DNA from: a virus | Lineage: Duplodnaviria; Heunggongvirae; Uroviricota; Caudoviricetes | Strand: one strand, 5' to 3' | Length of the DNA stretch: 40,436 bases | Virus record (IMG/VR): IMGVR_UViG_2737471852_000004 | Shown: in pieces, positions 29,239-36,853 of the stretch | How the letters are laid out: every line of letters starts with the position of its first letter | Position numbering within the stretch: position 1 is the first letter of the stretch | Program-made: the position numbers and the translations under genes | The notes under the pieces: generated by a model | Seen by the model: only the letters and a program-made list of their open reading frames with translations | What the model was told of the DNA's origin: nothing | Databases searched by the model: none

Positions 29239-30384
29239 ATGGCACAGGGCTTGCCTGTATCAAACGTTGTTAATGTTGATGTGATCATGTCGCCGCGTGC
29301 AGCATCAGGGCGAAATTTTGGTGCATTACTCATTCTCGGCCCGTCCACAATCATTCCGGTAAGTGAGCGCATTCGCCGTTATTCTGCCGCGGAAGATATT
29401 GGAAAAGATTTTGGCGTGGAATCACCAGAATATAAAGCTGCGCAGGTGTTTTTCTCACAATCACCGAAACCTCAGGAGGTTTTTGTTGGTCGTTGGGTGA
29501 AAACGAAGGGAGACAGCGAACAGGCCACGCCTGAGACGCTGGAGCAGGCTGTGAATGCCATGCTTGATTATACTTCATGGTATGGGCTGGGGATTGCAGA
29601 CGATGCAGATATTCCGGATGCAGACTGGCTGAAAGTGGCTGCGGAGATCGAATCCTCTTCTGTAAGCCGTATTCTGGCGATTACGACAAGCGATGAGAAA
29701 TGCCTGCAGACTGCATCCAGCGATGATTTGGCATCAAAACTGAAAACCGCCGGATATTCACGCAGTTTTATTCAATATTCATCGGGTAATAAATACGCTG
29801 CGTTATCTGCATTTGGCCGGGCATTCACGGTTAATTTCAATGGCAGTAATACCGCGATTACGCTCAAGTTTAAGCAGGAGCCGGGTGTCGGGTATGAAAC
29901 ACTGACAGTCAGCCAGGCATCGGCACTTGATGCAAAAAACTGCAATGTGTTCGTGTACTACCAGAATGATACAGCTATCCTCCAGCAGGGAGTGATGGCT
30001 AACGGCGATTTCTTTGATGAACGCCACGGCCTGGACTGGTTACAGAATTATGTGCAGACCAACCTCTATAACCTGCTTTATACCAGCACCACGAAAGTAC
30101 CCCAGACTGAAGCCGGTATTACCCGACTGTTATCAAGTGTTGAAAAATCACTGGATCAGGCCGTTCAGAATGGACTGATTGCTCCGGGCGTATGGAACGG
30201 GGGCGACCTTGGTCAGTTGTCATCAGGTGACACACTGCCCAAAGGTTATTACGTATACGCTCAGCCGCTGGATGAACAGGCTCAATCAGAACGTGAAGCC
30301 CGTAAGGCTCCGGTGATTCAGGCTGCAATAAAACTTGCAGGCGCGGTTCATTACGCTGACGTACAGATTAACGTTGTTCGCTAA
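29239..30384 (+). CDS. Putative contractile tail sheath protein
   Basis: 381 aa followed by a 146-aa tube-sized gene, chaperone and tape measure (canonical myovirus order). Confidence 0.6.
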
Positions 30385-30394
30385 GGGGAAGTGA

Positions 30395-30835
30395 ATGTCT
30401 ACCTATTCTTTTATGGATGTCACTGCGACGCTGACCGGGCCGACCGGTTCGATTGACCTCGGGTACGGTTCTGCAAGTTCTGAAGAGGGGATTGTGGTTG
30501 CGATGGGCGGTCCTAAAAACACCATGACCATCGGTGCTGATGGTGAAGTGATGCACAGCCTCCATGCAGATAAAAGCGGGACGATTACCGTTAACCTTCT
30601 GAAGACATCACAGACAAATAAAAAATTGTCGCTGGCGTATAACGCACAGAGCCAGTCTTCTGCCACATGGGGGAATAACGTTATTGTGATCCGAAACAAG
30701 GTCAGCGGCGACATCATCACGGCACGTAGTGTTGCGTTCCAGAAACAACCGGATAATGCCAACGCTAAAACCGGTAATACGATGCCGTGGGTGTTTGACT
30801 GCGGCAAGATTGACCAGGTTCTCGGGGAGTTTTAA
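30395..30835 (+). CDS. Putative tail tube protein
   Basis: 146 aa, between sheath and chaperone genes. Confidence 0.55.
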   Translation: MSTYSFMDVTATLTGPTGSIDLGYGSASSEEGIVVAMGGPKNTMTIGADGEVMHSLHADKSGTITVNLLKTSQTNKKLSLAYNAQSQSSATWGNNVIVIRNKVSGDIITARSVAFQKQPDNANAKTGNTMPWVFDCGKIDQVLGEF

Positions 30836-30838
30836 TAC

Positions 30839-31291
30839 ATGGAATTCGAAATCAAAGGCATGAAATATCGCGTGGCAAAACTCAGCGTTTTTGACCAGCT
30901 GAAAGTGACCCGCAAACTTCTGCCGGTACTGGCGGGAATGATGTCAGATTTCGGGAGCATTCGCTCATGTTTGCCTGCTGACGGCAAAATCGACACCGTG
31001 AAATTCGAGCAGTTAAAACCGGTGTTTGAAACCATGCTCCCGCGTATCGCTGAGGAACTGTCTTCCCTGACTGAAGAAGATACCAACGCGATTATTCATC
31101 CTTGCCTGGCCGTAGTGTCACGTAAGCACATGGACGGATGGACGCCGGTATTCAACAGCGGTCAGCTGATGTTCGATGATATCGACCTGCTAACCATGCT
31201 GCAGTTGGTGGCGCGGGTGGTCGCCGATTCACTGGGAAATTTTTTGCCTACACCCCTTACCAGCACGACACAGAGCCTGCAACAGGGCTGA
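30839..31291 (+). CDS. Tail assembly chaperone (short form)
   Basis: 150 aa directly upstream of the tape measure gene; contains a slippery heptamer near its 3' end. Confidence 0.6.
   Translation: MEFEIKGMKYRVAKLSVFDQLKVTRKLLPVLAGMMSDFGSIRSCLPADGKIDTVKFEQLKPVFETMLPRIAEELSSLTEEDTNAIIHPCLAVVSRKHMDGWTPVFNSGQLMFDDIDLLTMLQLVARVVADSLGNFLPTPLTSTTQSLQQG
31240..31246 (+). other. Candidate -1 programmed frameshift site T_TTT_TTG; the -1 frame stays open to 31479, giving an extended chaperone of about 213 aa
   Basis: Zero-frame codons AAT TTT TTG; the -1 frame from 31240 has no stop until TGA at 31477-31479, overlapping the tape measure start. Confidence 0.5.
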
Positions 31292-31468
31292 CGTTTAACA
31301 GCCTGCCGGACGGGCTGTCCTACCTTCTCAATCCGGTTGACGCCGGGTTAATTCCCTATACAGCACTTAAAGATGGCTCTGTCGATTTGTATGACATTGC
31401 TCTCTTGAATGACCATCTGGCGGTAAAAGCGGATAACCAGCGGCGCATTGAGAAATGGAGAGAGGATA

Positions 31469-33457
31469 ATGAACGCTGAAACTATTAAAGATTTCCTCGT
31501 CTCGCTTGGCTTCAGTGTGGATGAGGCAGGCGCGAAAAAGTTCGGTTCTGTCCTCGCCGGTACAACTGCAAATGTCATCAAAATGGGGGTGGCCGTTGAA
31601 GGAGCTGCACTGTCTGTGGTGGCCTTTACGGCTAAGATTGCCTCCGGCCTGGATAATCTTTACTGGGCGTCACAGCGCACCGGCGCGACAGTCCAGGGAA
31701 TTCAGTCTATTGGCTATGCGGTTTCGCAGGTTGGCGGCAGCGTGGACGCTGCGCGATCTTCTCTGGAAAGCCTCTCCCGGTTTATTCGTAACAATCCCGG
31801 TGCAGAAGGTTTTCTGAATCGCCTGGGCGTACAGACCCGTGATGCCAGCGGTAACATGCGTGACATGGCCGCTATTTTTACAGGTGTAGGCCAGAAGCTC
31901 AGCGGCATGCCGTATTACCGGGCTAACCAGTATGCGCAGATGCTGGGCATTGACGAAAATACCCTTATGGCGATGCGCCGGGGTGTGGGTGGCTTCTCCG
32001 GGCAGTACAGCGCAATGGCGAAAGCTATCGGCTTCAATGCTGACGAGGCGGCCAGAAGCTCCAACAAATTTATGACCTCCCTGCGTGAGTTTGGCGCGAT
32101 GGCAGGCATGGCCCGTGACAAAATCGGCTCTAATCTTGCGGGTGGGCTTGCGGGTTCGCTGGACACTCTGCGCCGCCATATCCTGGACAACTTCCCGCGT
32201 ATCGAGCAGACCCTGACGAAAGCCATAAAAGGCATTCTGGCGCTCGGGGATATTATCGGGCGGTTGTTCTTCAGACTGATTGAGGGGACATCAGGCCTTA
32301 TCACCTGGTGGCAATCGCTGGATAAGCAAACGCGGGAGCTCATCTCGCTGTTTGGCGCGCTGACGATTGCGCTGCGCATTCTGAACAGTACGTTCTGGAT
32401 GTCGCCGATTGGCCTCATTACCGCGTTGGCGGCGGGGATTGCCCTTCTGTGGGAGGACTATCAGACCTGGAAGGAAGGCGGCGACAGCCTGATTGACTGG
32501 GGTAAGTGGAAGCCGGAGGTCGATGCCGCGCTGAAGATGGTTCGTGACCTGAAAGGGTCTGTTAATGAACTGGCGAAAGCGCTGGCGAAACTGCTCAATA
32601 TTGACCCCAAATCATGGTCCCTGAAGTGGGATTTCAGCAACTTCATCGACCAGATGGGCGAATTCAGCAAAATGCTGAACATGATCGCCGACCTGCTCAA
32701 CGCTATCAAAGATGGCCGCTGGGCTGATGCCGTCAGCATCAGCAAACAGATACTTAATCAGGGCAGCGAAAATCCGTCAGCGATGCCGATGGTTACAGAC
32801 AGCGCTAACAGTACTGCCGACTGGATTAAAGAGCACTGGGGATTCGATCCTCGCAGCGTGGGCCGGACGGTACGCGGCTGGTTTGGTGATGATGAGCCGG
32901 AACAATATGCACAGGCTACGAAACGAGGAGAACGGAATAACAATCCGGGAAACCTTAATTTTGCTGGTCAGGCAGGGGCTTCTCTTGAACGCCCGGGCGG
33001 GCGATTTGCCAGATTTGAAACTGCTTTTGATGGATTACGGGCTCTTGCTCGTCAGTTAATGTTGTACGCCGGACGTGGAATAAACAGCGTGGAGAAAATT
33101 ATCTCTACCTGGGCACCTGCGTCTGATAATAACAACACAACTGCGTATATCAGGGCTGTATCGCAACGACTGGGAGTGGATCCCCGGGCTACCCTGAATA
33201 TGAGCGATCCGCAAACCATGTCAGCATTGATGAGCAGTATTATCCAGCATGAAAATGGAAGAAATATCTATTCTCGAGAGCTGATTAATAAGGCTGCCGT
33301 GGCAGGAATTAGTGGCAAAGTGACAGAGGTTAACCAGCAAAATACTTACCACATTTACGGTGGCGGAGATCCGCACGCTGTCGGTAATGAGGTTGCACGT
33401 CGGCAACAGTCTGCAAATGCTCAGGTCATGCGAAGTAATCAGGTGAGGGTGGGTTAG
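31469..33457 (+). CDS. Tail tape measure protein
   Basis: 662 aa, largely helical/low complexity, directly after the chaperone; ATG 31469 with GAGAGAGGA RBS. Confidence 0.75.
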   Translation: MNAETIKDFLVSLGFSVDEAGAKKFGSVLAGTTANVIKMGVAVEGAALSVVAFTAKIASGLDNLYWASQRTGATVQGIQSIGYAVSQVGGSVDAARSSLESLSRFIRNNPGAEGFLNRLGVQTRDASGNMRDMAAIFTGVGQKLSGMPYYRANQYAQMLGIDENTLMAMRRGVGGFSGQYSAMAKAIGFNADEAARSSNKFMTSLREFGAMAGMARDKIGSNLAGGLAGSLDTLRRHILDNFPRIEQTLTKAIKGILALGDIIGRLFFRLIEGTSGLITWWQSLDKQTRELISLFGALTIALRILNSTFWMSPIGLITALAAGIALLWEDYQTWKEGGDSLIDWGKWKPEVDAALKMVRDLKGSVNELAKALAKLLNIDPKSWSLKWDFSNFIDQMGEFSKMLNMIADLLNAIKDGRWADAVSISKQILNQGSENPSAMPMVTDSANSTADWIKEHWGFDPRSVGRTVRGWFGDDEPEQYAQATKRGERNNNPGNLNFAGQAGASLERPGGRFARFETAFDGLRALARQLMLYAGRGINSVEKIISTWAPASDNNNTTAYIRAVSQRLGVDPRATLNMSDPQTMSALMSSIIQHENGRNIYSRELINKAAVAGISGKVTEVNQQNTYHIYGGGDPHAVGNEVARRQQSANAQVMRSNQVRVG

Positions 33458-34348: not shown

Positions 34349-35413
34349 ATGTCACAGAACTGGATGAGACATTTCGAGCTGCAGCTTGTGGACGGGAACG
34401 GTAAGGGAATTGAGCTAAGTGATTTCAAAGTCACCTTTACGATTGACTGGTTCAACATCAGCAGCGCGTCCCGGGTAGGGACTATCAAAATTTATAACCT
34501 CTCGGCAGATACTGTGAACCGAATCACCGGGAAGGAATTTTCAAAAGTGCGGCTGATTGCCGGTTACGACAGTATCGCGCCGGAGGTGGCGGCAAGCGAC
34601 GTCGGGACCGTGCGCGAAGTCGACGCGGCAGATGTGGGCCAGAGTGATGGCCGCAACTACGGGCTGATTTTCAGCGGAGAAATTCGCTACTCGGTCACAG
34701 GAAAAGACAGCCCTATTGATTCCTATGTCCTGATTCAGGCAGCAGATACGGATCTGGCATTTGTCACCAGTATAACCTCACAGACGCTGGCTGCCGGTTA
34801 CACGGTCGCTGATGTAAACCGTGCGCTGATGAAAGACTTCGAAGCCAAAGGCGCGACCGAAGGCCTGACGCCTGAAATGCCTGCTACTGTATTCCCCCGG
34901 GGGCGGGTGCTCTTTGGCATGACGCGGCATCTTATGGATAACGTAGCCGGGCAATGTGGCGCAACATGGCAATTCGTGGACGGTCAACGCCAGATGGTGG
35001 CGAATAACGAATATGTTCATGAAGCGATTGTGCTCAACAGCGCCACCGGGCTTATCGGCATGCCGCAGCAGACTATCGGCAACGGCGTAAACGTCCGCGC
35101 GCTTATTAATCCGAACATCCGGGTTAATGGGCTCATTCAACTGGATCAGGCTTCCGTATATCGCACCGCGTTGTCGAACAACGATATTGCGATGGCTGGT
35201 GGGCAGATCACCGACCAGAACACGGACGGAAATATCACGCTAAGCGGCACCACAGCACAACCTGCCAGCATCGCAACGGATGGCGTTTATATTGTGCGCG
35301 GGATTATGTACACTGGCGATACAAGGGGCCAGGCGTGGTACATGGATATGATGTGCGAAGCGCGTGGCGCGGCGGATCTTGTTTCCTCATCAGCGAGGGA
35401 AAGAGGGCTTTAA
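34349..35413 (+). CDS. Putative baseplate hub protein
   Basis: 354 aa in the baseplate cluster upstream of the spike gene. Confidence 0.45.
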   Translation: MSQNWMRHFELQLVDGNGKGIELSDFKVTFTIDWFNISSASRVGTIKIYNLSADTVNRITGKEFSKVRLIAGYDSIAPEVAASDVGTVREVDAADVGQSDGRNYGLIFSGEIRYSVTGKDSPIDSYVLIQAADTDLAFVTSITSQTLAAGYTVADVNRALMKDFEAKGATEGLTPEMPATVFPRGRVLFGMTRHLMDNVAGQCGATWQFVDGQRQMVANNEYVHEAIVLNSATGLIGMPQQTIGNGVNVRALINPNIRVNGLIQLDQASVYRTALSNNDIAMAGGQITDQNTDGNITLSGTTAQPASIATDGVYIVRGIMYTGDTRGQAWYMDMMCEARGAADLVSSSARERGL

Positions 35414-35745
35414 TGAAACGGTTATGTTTGGCGTTAGTTATGATGGTTACTGCTCCGGCGATGGCTGCAATTCAGTGCGGCAACTACACGATGACCGGTG
35501 ACGGAATGACTGTTATTAACGGTGAAACTGTCACATCACAGAAGATAAAATTTCTGGGAAAAGATGGTGACTATTCAAACATAAAAATGGACATGGGCCT
35601 GATGCCTTCCCGTGATGGTAACAATTACGGCTTTGAGTTTGTGAAACGTAACGGAAAAGCTTTCCTGAATGTCCAACTGCTGCAGAACAGCATGGATGCG
35701 CCGAAAATCATCGGTTCCTTTCCATGCAAAAAGATTGTTGATTAA
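35413..35745 (+). CDS. Small secreted protein with cleavable signal peptide (moron candidate)
   Basis: MKRLCLALVMMVTAPAMA-AIQC...: positive n-region, hydrophobic core, AXA cleavage site; ATG overlaps upstream stop; unexpected inside a baseplate cluster. Confidence 0.55.
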   Translation: MKRLCLALVMMVTAPAMAAIQCGNYTMTGDGMTVINGETVTSQKIKFLGKDGDYSNIKMDMGLMPSRDGNNYGFEFVKRNGKAFLNVQLLQNSMDAPKIIGSFPCKKIVD

Positions 35746-35798: not shown

Positions 35799-36038
35799 AT
35801 GTTCGGATTTGATAAATTAATAACTCCAAAAATCATCAACGTTCTGTATGGCATCACAATGTTACTTCTGGTTGTTGCCGCCATTATAACGTTTGTTAAT
35901 GGGAAGGCTGCTGGCGCTTTAGTGCTTTTGTTATGTGCTGTATTTTGCCGAATATTCTTTGAGTGCATCATGGTTTCATTTAAAAACAATGAGTATCTTC
36001 GCCGAATAGCTGAAGCGTTAGAAGCAAACAAGCAGTAA
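35799..36038 (+). CDS. Small two-TM membrane protein (79 aa; moron candidate)
   Basis: Two hydrophobic helices (ILYGITMLLLVVAAIITFV and ALVLLLCAVFCRIFFECIMV); own promoter and terminator; AT-rich relative to neighbours. Confidence 0.5.
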   Translation: MFGFDKLITPKIINVLYGITMLLLVVAAIITFVNGKAAGALVLLLCAVFCRIFFECIMVSFKNNEYLRRIAEALEANKQ

Positions 36039-36097: not shown

Positions 36098-36853
36098 ATG
36101 GCAGTATCTGACCAGACCCGCAGCGGCGACCTTGCTGAAACATTCAAATCTGAACGGGAAACAACAAAGAACCAGATCCGTGTCGCCTTGCCTGGCATTG
36201 TTCAGTCATTCGATCCCGACGCGGTGACGGCGGTTGTGCAGCCAGCTATCCGTTCGGTTGAAAAGGATAACGACGGCAAGCGCATTACCAAAAATTACCC
36301 ATTGCTGGTGGATGTGCCAGTGGTATTCCCGAGCGGCGGAGGATGCACGCTAACGTTCCCAGTTAAAGCCGGTGATGAATGTTTGGTGATTTTTGCCGAT
36401 CGTTGTATTGATTTCTGGTGGCAGAGCGGCGGAATACAGGAACCGGTCGATGACAGAATGCATGATTTATCGGATGCGTTTTGTATCGTCGGTCCGCAGT
36501 CTCAGGCGCAGAAAATCAGCGGAATCAGCACCAGCGCCGCGCAACTGCGTACTGATGATGGCGCTGCGTTTGTGGAAGTGGCCGCAGGCCATAACATCAC
36601 GGTTAAAACCCCCGGCGCGCTGACGGCGACAGCAGAAGGAGGAACCACGATCACATCACCCACCATCACGCTAAACGGCAACGTGACAATAAACGGGAAT
36701 CTCTCTCAGGGGATGGGCGAAAGCGGCGGCACCGCGACGATGCTTGGCCCTGTCACGGTGACTAACGATGTAAAAGCTGGTGGTAAGAGCCTGATAACGC
36801 ACACGCACGGCGGAGTACAGACCGGCGGCGGTAACACAGGAGCGCCTAACTGA
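36098..36853 (+). CDS. Baseplate central spike protein (gp138 / gpV-like)
   Basis: N-terminal gp138-like domain (IRVALPGIVQSF..., ECLVIFADRCIDFWW) and C-terminal beta-helix with THTHGG. Confidence 0.7.
   Translation: MAVSDQTRSGDLAETFKSERETTKNQIRVALPGIVQSFDPDAVTAVVQPAIRSVEKDNDGKRITKNYPLLVDVPVVFPSGGGCTLTFPVKAGDECLVIFADRCIDFWWQSGGIQEPVDDRMHDLSDAFCIVGPQSQAQKISGISTSAAQLRTDDGAAFVEVAAGHNITVKTPGALTATAEGGTTITSPTITLNGNVTINGNLSQGMGESGGTATMLGPVTVTNDVKAGGKSLITHTHGGVQTGGGNTGAPN

Follow-up and report, generated by a model that had tools for sequence, protein, structure and literature searches.

Does the small gene between the tail tube and tape measure genes of this virus encode a single protein, or also a longer one that is reached by a change of reading frame? 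The gene lies in what we call the window, the whole stretch of 40,436 nt that was analysed. The initial annotation had read it as a tail assembly chaperone gene whose product is extended by a candidate programmed -1 frameshift near its 3′ end, in the G/GT-type arrangement of tailed phages. We took the criteria for a G/GT-type chaperone from Xu, Hendrix & Duda 2004. The features on which the argument draws are the following:

29239-30384: sheath gene, 5′ of the tube gene (DUF3383; phrog_205 'tail sheath')
30395..30835, + strand: tail tube protein gene of the KPP10_Orf10 / DUF3277 family, which bounds the cassette on its upstream side (Pfam PF11681, E=1.4e-59)
30839..31291, + strand: tail assembly chaperone gene, short 'G-like' form, with a zero-frame product of 150 aa (ORF and translation)
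31180..31479, + strand: -1 reading frame of 99 open codons and a stop, with its predicted post-shift part at about 31240/31246-31476 (sequence)
31234..31246, + strand: candidate composite slippery run GGGAAATTTTTTG, three overlapping in-register heptamers (register check)
31354..31470, + strand: DUF6889 domain read in the -1 frame, which forms the conserved core of the 'T-like' extension (Pfam PF21829)
31457..31471, + strand: Shine-Dalgarno-like GGAGAGAGGA and the tape measure ATG (31469), inside the last extension codons (sequence)
31469..33457, + strand: tape measure gene, which bounds the cassette downstream and whose 662-aa product carries a lytic transglycosylase-like region at its C-terminus (phrog_2276 'tail length tape measure protein', E=1.5e-282)

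The identity of the chaperone gene was supported by two family matches. Its zero-frame product matched Phage_TAC_15 (PF21822) in Pfam with E=2.9e-32 and 112.3 bits, against a gathering threshold of 22, and phrog_1688 'tail assembly chaperone' in PHROG with E=2.5e-65. NCBIfam models gave no match for the chaperone or for the extension, and a profile search against PDB sequences returned nothing meaningful (best E=0.51). The tube, chaperone and tape measure genes follow each other in this order on one strand, which is the position that a G/GT pair occupies, and no promoter- or terminator-like sites were found between them. The homologues of the tape measure protein in RefSeq relatives are named 'lytic transglycosylase'.

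The zero-frame codons towards the chaperone gene's 3′ end are CTG GGA AAT TTT TTG, with AAT at 31238-40, TTT at 31241-43 and TTG at 31244-46. The heptamer T_TTT_TTG that had been proposed as the slippery site was found exactly where it had been placed, at 31240-31246, in the X_XXY_YYZ register. It is not the sole candidate, since two further heptamers in the same register, G_GGA_AAT at 31234-40 and A_AAT_TTT at 31237-43, overlap it within GGGAAATTTTTTG and had been missed. In-register heptamers occur in the ORFs of the window with at least 100 aa at a rate of 0.0039 per codon (60 in 15,349 codons). About 0.14 would therefore be expected by chance in the 37 last codons of the chaperone gene that the -1 frame overlaps, and three were observed. 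The XXXYYYZZZZZZ 13-mer has a single occurrence in the window, both strands counted.

The slippery site was then compared among 82 diverged loci, made up of 80 GTDB loci and the phages Mulock and SEN34. T_TTT_TTN was present in register in 79 of them, A_AAT_TTT in 75 and G_GGA_AAT in 69. Where a locus keeps the Asn and Phe residues, it encodes them by AAT and TTT in 100% of cases, and never by AAC or TTC; where the Asn codon has been replaced (by GGT, AGT or GAT), its third base is still T, so that the slippery run is preserved and only the T run is left. Synonymous codon identity reaches its highest values at the site (0.68-0.76 vs 0.51 overall). The same arrangement was seen in all 80 close IMG/VR contigs, each with a run of six T. 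A run of seven T was found in the relatives L053, L066 and L069-71. A few loci break the pattern, through an indel in the extension (L038), a T5 run (L082) or an extension that runs on (L066); prophage decay or faulty assembly seems to account for them.

All seven distant phages compared, at 25-40% identity, had an extension with DUF6889 that is read in the -1 frame. The slippery motif at the homologous spot varied among them and was C_CCT_TTT, G_GGT_TTT/T_TTT_TTC, T_TTT_TTT, A_AAT_TTT, or G_GGA_AAT alone. Acinetobacter phage A785.1 has A_AAT_TTT without the T6 run, and both Bordetella phage IFTN9 and the Salmonella locus L019 have G_GGA_AAT with no T run at all. By the class rules of Sharma et al. 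2014, U_UUU_UUG and G_GGA_AAU do not belong to the motif classes that shift most efficiently in E. coli. Taken together, the distant relatives and these published E. coli rules indicate A_AAT_TTT at least as strongly as T_TTT_TTG as the site of the predicted slip.

A search for elements that could stimulate frameshifting was negative on both sides of the run. For a downstream structure, the window fold gave z=-0.06, and RNAalifold on 45 diverged sequences gave about 0 kcal/mol with per-sequence z-scores averaging -0.11. Rfam gave zero matches across the whole window. RNAalifold also found no upstream structure on codons 110-150 or on codons 120-136, the latter being the 51 nt up to and including the run. 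No Shine-Dalgarno-like element was found 6-17 nt upstream of the motif; the closest stretch rich in G, GGGTGG, ends at a distance of about 20 nt on that side. The locus thus shows neither the conserved hairpin or pseudoknot nor the Shine-Dalgarno-like element of a dnaX-, IS911- or IS3-type stimulator. Synonymous conservation 5′ of codon 130 was only slightly raised (0.54-0.62 vs 0.51 overall). A 40-nt upstream block that had appeared strongly conserved in three sequences failed in 73 sequences and was dropped. Because no stimulatory RNA element is conserved, the slippery run alone is probably sufficient for the slip.

The slip could also occur during transcription, with RNA polymerase adding one U on the T6 run so that a U7 mRNA is translated into the same 213-aa protein (...GNFFAY...) that a ribosomal shift would give. 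Bacteria use this process for some genes (PMC5009743), the conserved core of the site is a homopolymer run, and several relatives have T7 there. In addition, one Logan contig with T7 in place of T6 encodes the exact predicted 213-aa fusion as an in-frame protein, P0001. We set P0001 aside as evidence of a natural fusion, since it may be a homopolymer error given the T6 run of every close contig, and used it solely to illustrate the fusion product. Efficient slippage by bacterial RNA polymerase is, however, described for runs of 9 A or T, whereas at T5C5 it is undetectable unless a special hairpin lies upstream (PMC5009743). The run of six T, seen here and in every close contig, falls short of that length of about 9, and RNAalifold detected no conserved structure in the codons leading up to it. 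Moreover, the arrangement is kept with T4 and, in the two lineages named above, with G_GGA_AAT alone, which are classical ribosomal heptamers and poor polymerase sites. Finally, relatives keep the run in one register with respect to the zero frame, and register matters to ribosomes and not to RNA polymerase. For these reasons we consider transcriptional slippage unlikely, and infer a ribosomal shift.

The -1 frame is bounded upstream by a stop at 31177-79 and ends at the TGA at 31477-31479. It had been described as open for about 78 codons after the slip, and 77 sense codons were counted from 31246. Its end had been placed at the tape measure start, and the stop indeed overlaps the ATG at 31469 by 11 nt, an overlap shared by 52 of 78 relatives. 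The predicted fusion product has 213 aa, comprising chaperone residues 1 to about 135 and the 77-aa extension. Openness of the frame was dropped as evidence because it does not discriminate: genes are dense in the window, and 29 of its 80 ORFs have an open -1 frame beyond their stop. Weight was therefore placed on homology and comparative evidence. Residues 59-97 of the -1 ORF matched DUF6889 (PF21829) with E=2.2e-20 and 72.6 bits, against a gathering threshold of 23.9, and residues 47-99 matched phrog_4364 with E=3.8e-23. Pfam also assigns DUF6889 to the -1 extensions of the Acinetobacter and Bordetella phage relatives.

In the alignment with homologous chaperone pairs, which had been suggested as a check, the extension stayed in the -1 frame in 79 of the 82 diverged loci, and in 78 it was intact for 60-65 codons beyond the zero-frame stop. 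The homology of the zero-frame chaperone stops at residue 134-135, which is the slip site, in every relative. Conservation of the -1 peptide starts at the slip site, with the consensus FFaRtPrqrd.... Diversity at the three codon positions gave the same boundary. Upstream of the site it was 0.31/0.20/0.56 in the zero frame; downstream it was 0.37/0.28/0.54 in the -1 frame within the overlap, which is a coding pattern, and 0.29/0.25/0.57 past the zero-frame stop. These results show that selection acts on the zero frame before the slip site and on the -1 frame after it, and that the -1 extension is a real coding sequence.

The DUF6889 region could instead be an independent small gene of 54 aa that initiates by itself at CTG 31315, as in RefSeq/PGAP annotation. 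RefSeq records give the 'DUF6889 family protein' a CDS of its own, public databases contain numerous stand-alone calls with lengths of 43-78 aa, and PHROG 4364 is a 54-residue profile built on such calls. These calls are nevertheless inconsistent in length across that whole range, and the CTG start is non-canonical, with a Leu codon that is not conserved and is Glu in most relatives. No canonical start precedes DUF6889 in the window; the first ATG, GTG or TTG of the -1 frame is the TTG at 31387-31389 (Leu70), inside the conserved domain, and the ORF list holds no ORF of at least 40 aa in the -1 frame of this region. Among the relatives, the first canonical start lies anywhere from -199 to +134 nt from the zero-frame stop and is missing in some loci. 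In addition, the -1 frame shows protein-level conservation and coding phase from a point within the chaperone gene, the slip site, that precedes the CTG by 70 nt, and an independent gene needs no fixed frame, yet the -1 relation is kept almost throughout the diverged loci and in distant phages. Independent initiation is thus very unlikely. The notion that a slippery-looking run lies by chance beside an accidentally open frame whose extension is not expressed can point to how common open -1 frames are in the window and to the in-register heptamers elsewhere in it, but it is effectively refuted by the match of the frame to a curated family (E=2e-20), by the coding substitution pattern with which the 82 diverged loci keep it and by its presence in phages of other bacterial orders.

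We therefore return to the frameshift, for which the position of the gene, the relation of the frames, the missing start, the in-register site and the conservation agree with a G/GT-type arrangement, as the initial annotation had held. Judged from these sequence comparisons, a programmed -1 ribosomal frameshift very probably yields the short and long tail chaperones of this SEN34/Mulock-like temperate myovirus prophage (estimated probability, about 0.88). Most ribosomes would stay in the zero frame until the TGA at 31289 and release the 150-aa chaperone. A minority would move back by one nucleotide on GGGAAATTTTTTG (31234-31246) and translate the -1 frame as far as the TGA at 31477, giving a 213-aa fusion whose 77-aa extension ends in the DUF6889 domain. 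The missing stimulatory element leads us to infer a low efficiency of slipping. A literature search found no published data on the short and fused proteins of this lineage. If the system works like lambda G/GT and P2 E/E+E′, the N-terminal part common to both forms would let them coat the tape measure protein, the rarer extension would bring in the tail tube protein and initiate its polymerisation into a tube, and the virion would contain neither form. AlphaFold2 on P0001 with a 56-row alignment gave a mean pLDDT of 40 and a pTM of 0.24; this model is too poor for any functional claim on the extension from structure.

A more tentative idea concerns how the run might be used. GGGAAATTTTTTG could be a tandem redundant slippery cassette that gives each ribosome three successive chances for a -1 shift (G_GGA_AAU, A_AAU_UUU and U_UUU_UUG), which would sum to the needed chaperone ratio without RNA structure. 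Two fusion isoforms, ...GNFFAY... and ...GNFLAY..., would then be made, and lineages would keep different subsets of the sites. We regard this as possible, at clearly less than even odds. If it were true, the family would be a natural series for dissecting stimulator-free frameshifting. Three stacked heptamers with no stimulatory structure and with natural variants also make a handy system for asking which heptamer bacterial ribosomes use.

The practical value of these results lies in annotation. Across Enterobacterales, RefSeq calls the DUF6889 domain as a separate gene with the non-canonical CTG start, and public genomes wrongly present the extension as a separate small gene. The comparisons above indicate that DUF6889 and PHROG 4364 are the frameshift-dependent C-terminal domain of Phage_TAC_15 chaperones and no independent protein family. 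Older records give the DUF6889 domain the spurious name 'NTP pyrophosphohydrolase'. The biological gain is small, as the frameshift had been annotated beforehand in two relatives of this phage group.

Several known systems resemble the locus to different degrees. The paper on Pseudomonas phage Adele (PMC12846349) treats Pakpunavirus / Vandenendeviridae, which have a related KPP10-type tail module; the tube protein of our virus belongs to Pfam KPP10_Orf10. In those phages, the short chaperone gene has a conserved poly-T motif (GTTTTT) at its 3′ end, and no stop interrupts the -1 frame across a region that is frequently listed as a hypothetical gene of its own (PMC12846349). They differ in being a lytic family with another motif context, and the evidence for their proposed frameshift, to which ours is likened by module and motif, is computational too (PMC12846349).

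Phage P2 offers another parallel as a contractile-tailed E. coli phage, in which the tube and tape measure genes flank a small gene with a -1 shift close to its 3′ end. The P2 E/E+E′ frameshift was reportedly described by Christie et al. in 2002 and by Xu, Hendrix and Duda in 2004. According to a later account, the shift occurs at TTTTTTG with no downstream structure (PMC3091744). That slip sequence is identical to 31240-31246, and neither site has a downstream RNA structure. The proteins differ in size, with 150/213 aa here and 91/142 aa in P2, and the T run here sits inside a longer run with two more in-register heptamers. The P2 shift has been shown experimentally, whereas ours is known from sequence. 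Homology to P2 was judged through Pfam, where Phage_TAC_15 and DUF6889 were the only families recovered at E cut-offs of 0.01 (chaperone and fusion) and 10 (extension).

Lambda G and GT occupy the same gene position, form a short and a long protein with a common N-terminus, and have an extension without a start of its own. The G:GT ratio in lambda is 30:1. The system is said to have been worked out by Levin, Hendrix and Casjens in 1993 and by Xu et al. in 2004, 2013 and 2014. The lambda heptamer G_GGA_AAG is one base from the G_GGA_AAT found here, although the A-site codon here, AAU, is a weaker shifter in E. coli than AAG. Lambda differs in being a siphovirus, and the Pfam scan gave no homology to lambda proteins. 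Neither G nor GT is present in mature lambda virions, and in the lambda model both bind the tape measure protein while the extension binds the tube protein (PMC5009743).

True homologues of this chaperone are described in two phages with the same tail module. The chaperone homologue of Klebsiella phage Mulock (MN098327, CPT_Mulock_015) has 60% aa identity and an identical GGGAAATTTTTTG run; that of Burkholderia phage Magia (MT701587, CPT_Magia_016) has 27% aa identity and C_CCT_TTT at the homologous position. The Mulock paper makes no mention of a frameshift. In GenBank, both genes are entered in two pieces as a 'tape measure chaperone frameshift product', which are annotation calls only. The case described here is well supported and ordinary, and it adds a further example to the conserved frameshift of tail chaperones.

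The tail assembly chaperone gene is predicted to encode a 150-aa protein and, as the initial annotation had proposed, carries a slippery site towards its 3′ end. In the zero frame, the codons CTG GGA AAT TTT TTG (31232-31246) place T_TTT_TTG (31240-31246) in the canonical X_XXY_YYZ register. The -1 frame is open for 99 codons from the stop at 31177-31179 to a TGA at 31477-31479, and this TGA lies at the tape measure start as claimed, overlapping the gene by 11 nt because its ATG is at 31469. Two additional in-register heptamers had been overlooked: GGGAAATTTTTTG (31234-31246) contains G_GGA_AAT, A_AAT_TTT and T_TTT_TTG in overlapping order. The chance expectation was ~0.14 in-register heptamers for the 37-codon overlap, and the 13-mer pattern occurred only once in the window when both strands were counted. 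Because open -1 frames are common in this gene-dense window (29 of 80 ORFs were open past the stop), openness was left out of the evidence. The genes of the region are as follows.

Upstream of the chaperone: sheath gene (DUF3383, PHROG 205)
30395-30835, upstream of the chaperone: tube gene (KPP10_Orf10 / DUF3277)
30839-31291, + strand: chaperone gene (Pfam Phage_TAC_15, E=2.9e-32; PHROG 1688 'tail assembly chaperone', E=2.5e-65)
31469-33457, downstream of the chaperone: tape measure gene (PHROG 2276, E=1.5e-282)
Further downstream: Dit-like protein, Pam3_gp18-type plug and baseplate hub (Pfam/PHROG context)

No promoter- or terminator-like sites were found between the tube, chaperone and tape measure genes. 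The -1-frame translation matched Pfam DUF6889 (E=2.2e-20, frame residues 59-97) and PHROG 4364 (E=3.8e-23, frame residues 47-99). The earliest ATG, GTG or TTG of this frame past the upstream stop is TTG 31387-31389 (Leu70), inside the conserved domain, indicating that canonical independent initiation cannot yield DUF6889; no ORF of at least 40 aa was listed in the -1 frame there.

Alignment with homologous chaperones, a check suggested at the outset, covered 82 diverged loci: 80 from GTDB species-representative genomes (chaperone 38-92% aa identity) and the phages Mulock and SEN34. Relative to the chaperone, the extension homologue occupied the -1 frame in 79 of the 82, and it remained unbroken for 60-65 codons beyond the zero-frame stop in 78. 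In-register T_TTT_TTN, A_AAT_TTT and G_GGA_AAT were present at 79, 75 and 69 loci, respectively, and the complete triple motif with exactly six T's was found in 80/80 close IMG/VR contigs. Where the Asn codon was swapped for GGT, AGT or GAT, its third base was still T, so that the T run persists and the two upstream heptamers disappear. Codons at the slip site were frozen: among sequences retaining the amino acid, AAT was never AAC and TTT never TTC, and synonymous codon identity was maximal near codons 130-140 (0.68-0.76 vs 0.51 overall). The most direct evidence is the codon-position substitution pattern, according to which purifying selection changes frame at the slippery run, from zero to -1.

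Diversity at codon positions 1/2/3
Chaperone body, zero frame: 0.31 / 0.20 / 0.56
Overlap after the site, -1 frame: 0.37 / 0.28 / 0.54
Beyond the zero-frame stop, -1 frame: 0.29 / 0.25 / 0.57

Zero-frame homology ended at residue 134-135 in every relative, and the -1 peptide was conserved directly after the run (consensus FF-A-R-T-P-R/Y-Q-R-D). The terminal 14-15 residues of the short form (31247-31288) were conserved in no relative and appear unconstrained; since selection in the overlap acts on the -1 frame, the overlap seems to create this C-terminal tail incidentally. Three loci were exceptional: L038 has an indel within the extension, the -1 frame of L066 (Izhakiella) extends over 241 codons and may enter the tape measure gene, and L082 (Apirhabdus) has T5, which places the extension in the +1 frame. 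Prophage decay or homopolymer errors in assembly probably account for these cases. One 213-aa database protein, P0001, carries both domains in a single frame, and its contig has T7, not T6, at exactly the slip run. It illustrates the form of the fusion; it is a lone exception in a set of roughly 160 loci and may be a homopolymer error.

Chaperones 25-40% identical were found in seven phages, whose hosts are Burkholderia, Bordetella, Acinetobacter, Ralstonia, Providencia and Edwardsiella; all seven extensions lay in the -1 frame and shared the core motif LPGGEDWLLRPV...YESLxDGxLDLADIALMND, DUF6889 being confirmed in two. At the homologous position, Magia and BgManors32 have C_CCT_TTT, Ralstonia PY059YO380 G_GGT_TTT / T_TTT_TTC, Providencia PSTCR3 T_TTT_TTT and Acinetobacter A785.1 G_GGA_AAT plus A_AAT_TTT, with only a T_TTT tetramer in Edwardsiella ZHS and only G_GGA_AAT in Bordetella IFTN9. 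The slippery motif thus turns over while the frame relation is fixed, which matches the prediction of a programmed frameshift.

RefSeq/PGAP treats DUF6889 as a gene of its own: the sampled E. coli genomes have a separate CDS of 54 aa, 'DUF6889 family protein', that starts at a non-canonical CTG at 31315 (window 31315-31479, equivalent to 2421-2585 of locus L001, NZ_CM168005.1), and stand-alone calls in a large protein database run from 43 to 78 aa, some under the name 'NTP pyrophosphohydrolase'. However, the CTG is not conserved, most relatives having Glu there, canonical starts for this frame are scattered or missing among relatives, and the -1 coding signal begins ~70 nt upstream of the CTG, within the chaperone gene. 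We therefore consider the separate CDS a systematic misannotation. The pyrophosphohydrolase name, attached to homologues of the 40-aa DUF6889 extension in many NCBI records (proteins P0122, P0124, P0125, P0127, P0129 and others; Klebsiella phage records H8-H10), appears spurious and propagated because Pfam scans gave it no support. Production of the fusion by transcriptional slippage on the T run is unlikely: in bacteria this process is described as efficient at runs of nine and is not detected at T5C5 unless a special hairpin is present (PMC5009743), whereas the run here is only T6, its register is conserved, and relatives get by with T4 or without a T run. The family match, together with the comparative data, excludes a chance slippery run beside an open frame.

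Each of the three heptamers is a candidate slip site. T_TTT_TTG, the choice of the initial annotation, is the best conserved in the close family, and TTTTTTG is the reported shift site of P2 E/E+E′, likewise without downstream structure (PMC3091744). A_AAT_TTT is favoured by the 'NNT TTT' present in 6/7 distant relatives, in which a UUU A-site codon would allow cognate re-pairing after the slip; Sharma et al. 2014 (PMC4066793) described such re-pairing as the main rule in bacteria, placed H_HH.U_UU.Y in the most efficient group of E. coli motifs, and classed UUG and AAU as 'heterogeneous', weaker A-site codons. G_GGA_AAT differs by one base from G_GGA_AAG of lambda and is the sole heptamer remaining in Bordetella phage IFTN9 (L166) and a Salmonella enterica s1 locus (L019), where the T run was lost (GGGAAATATTTTG in L019 and GGGAAATACTTTC in L166) and the -1 extension stayed intact. 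The occurrence of this state in two independent lineages suggests that G_GGA_AAT can function by itself. The predicted fusion is 213 aa whichever heptamer is used, with the junction ...GNFFAY... for G_GGA_AAT or A_AAT_TTT and ...GNFLAY... for T_TTT_TTG, the products being one residue apart.

The 90 nt after the site folded no better than shuffles (z=-0.06), RNAalifold gave ~0 kcal/mol for conserved structure in upstream and downstream windows (45 sequences, <85% identity), and Rfam had no match. As no stimulators were found, frameshift efficiency would be low. The slippery run is seemingly the sole signal, as in lambda and P2.

The prophage is related to vB_EcoM-606R2 and similar Escherichia phages (95% nt), to Yersinia phage YP3 (84%), to the Brunovirus SEN34 of Salmonella (75%) and to Klebsiella phage Mulock (69%), and the element was found in 341/5,426 complete E. 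coli genomes. A LacY-family sugar symporter at 1-1248 (Pfam LacY_symp, E=2.6e-193) represents host chromosome, which places one prophage boundary within the first few kilobases of the window. Two small genes lie within the baseplate module, flanked by the hub gene (34349-35413) and a spike-like gene (36098-36853, GpV apex motif):

35410-35745: 110-aa protein with a signal-peptide-like N-terminus (MKRLCLALVMMVTAPAMA), without Pfam match
35799-36038: 79-aa DUF4282 membrane protein

This pair looks like a moron-type insertion. The Enterobacterial-type tail module also appeared in records of Bacteroidota/Firmicutes hosts (Chryseobacterium sp. 18061, L016; Bacillus sp. AFS073361, L083, a 395-bp contig; Elizabethkingia phage EKP1, H20/H68, 68% nt) with chaperones 53-80% aa identical; these attributions look like contamination or misattribution, not true host range. 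In GenBank, the tape measure genes of Mulock (CPT_Mulock_016, L002 2536-4265) and Edwardsiella phage ZHS_23 (L167 1378-1787) are mislabelled as 'tape measure chaperone' and 'portal protein', respectively.

GenBank homologues in Mulock and Magia already carry the label 'tape measure chaperone frameshift product', and a 2025 paper (PMC12846349) made a computational case that KPP10-like Pseudomonas phages have this device too; our literature search found no experimental demonstration of the frameshift in this lineage. The useful outputs here are the stack of three in-register heptamers and the reassignment of DUF6889 / PHROG 4364 as a frameshift-dependent C-terminal domain of Phage_TAC_15 chaperones. 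Modelling the fusion with AlphaFold2 gave no usable structure (mean pLDDT 40), and PDB and NCBIfam searches were empty. Because lambda G and GT are both absent from mature virions (PMC5009743), induced-cell lysate, not virions, is the right material for mass spectrometry. Pfam scans detected no homology to lambda or P2 proteins. The G/GT-type arrangement proposed initially held for every sequence-testable feature set out by Xu, Hendrix and Duda (2004), and by analogy the element is a predicted tail chaperone frameshift that would work like lambda G/GT and P2 E/E+E′.
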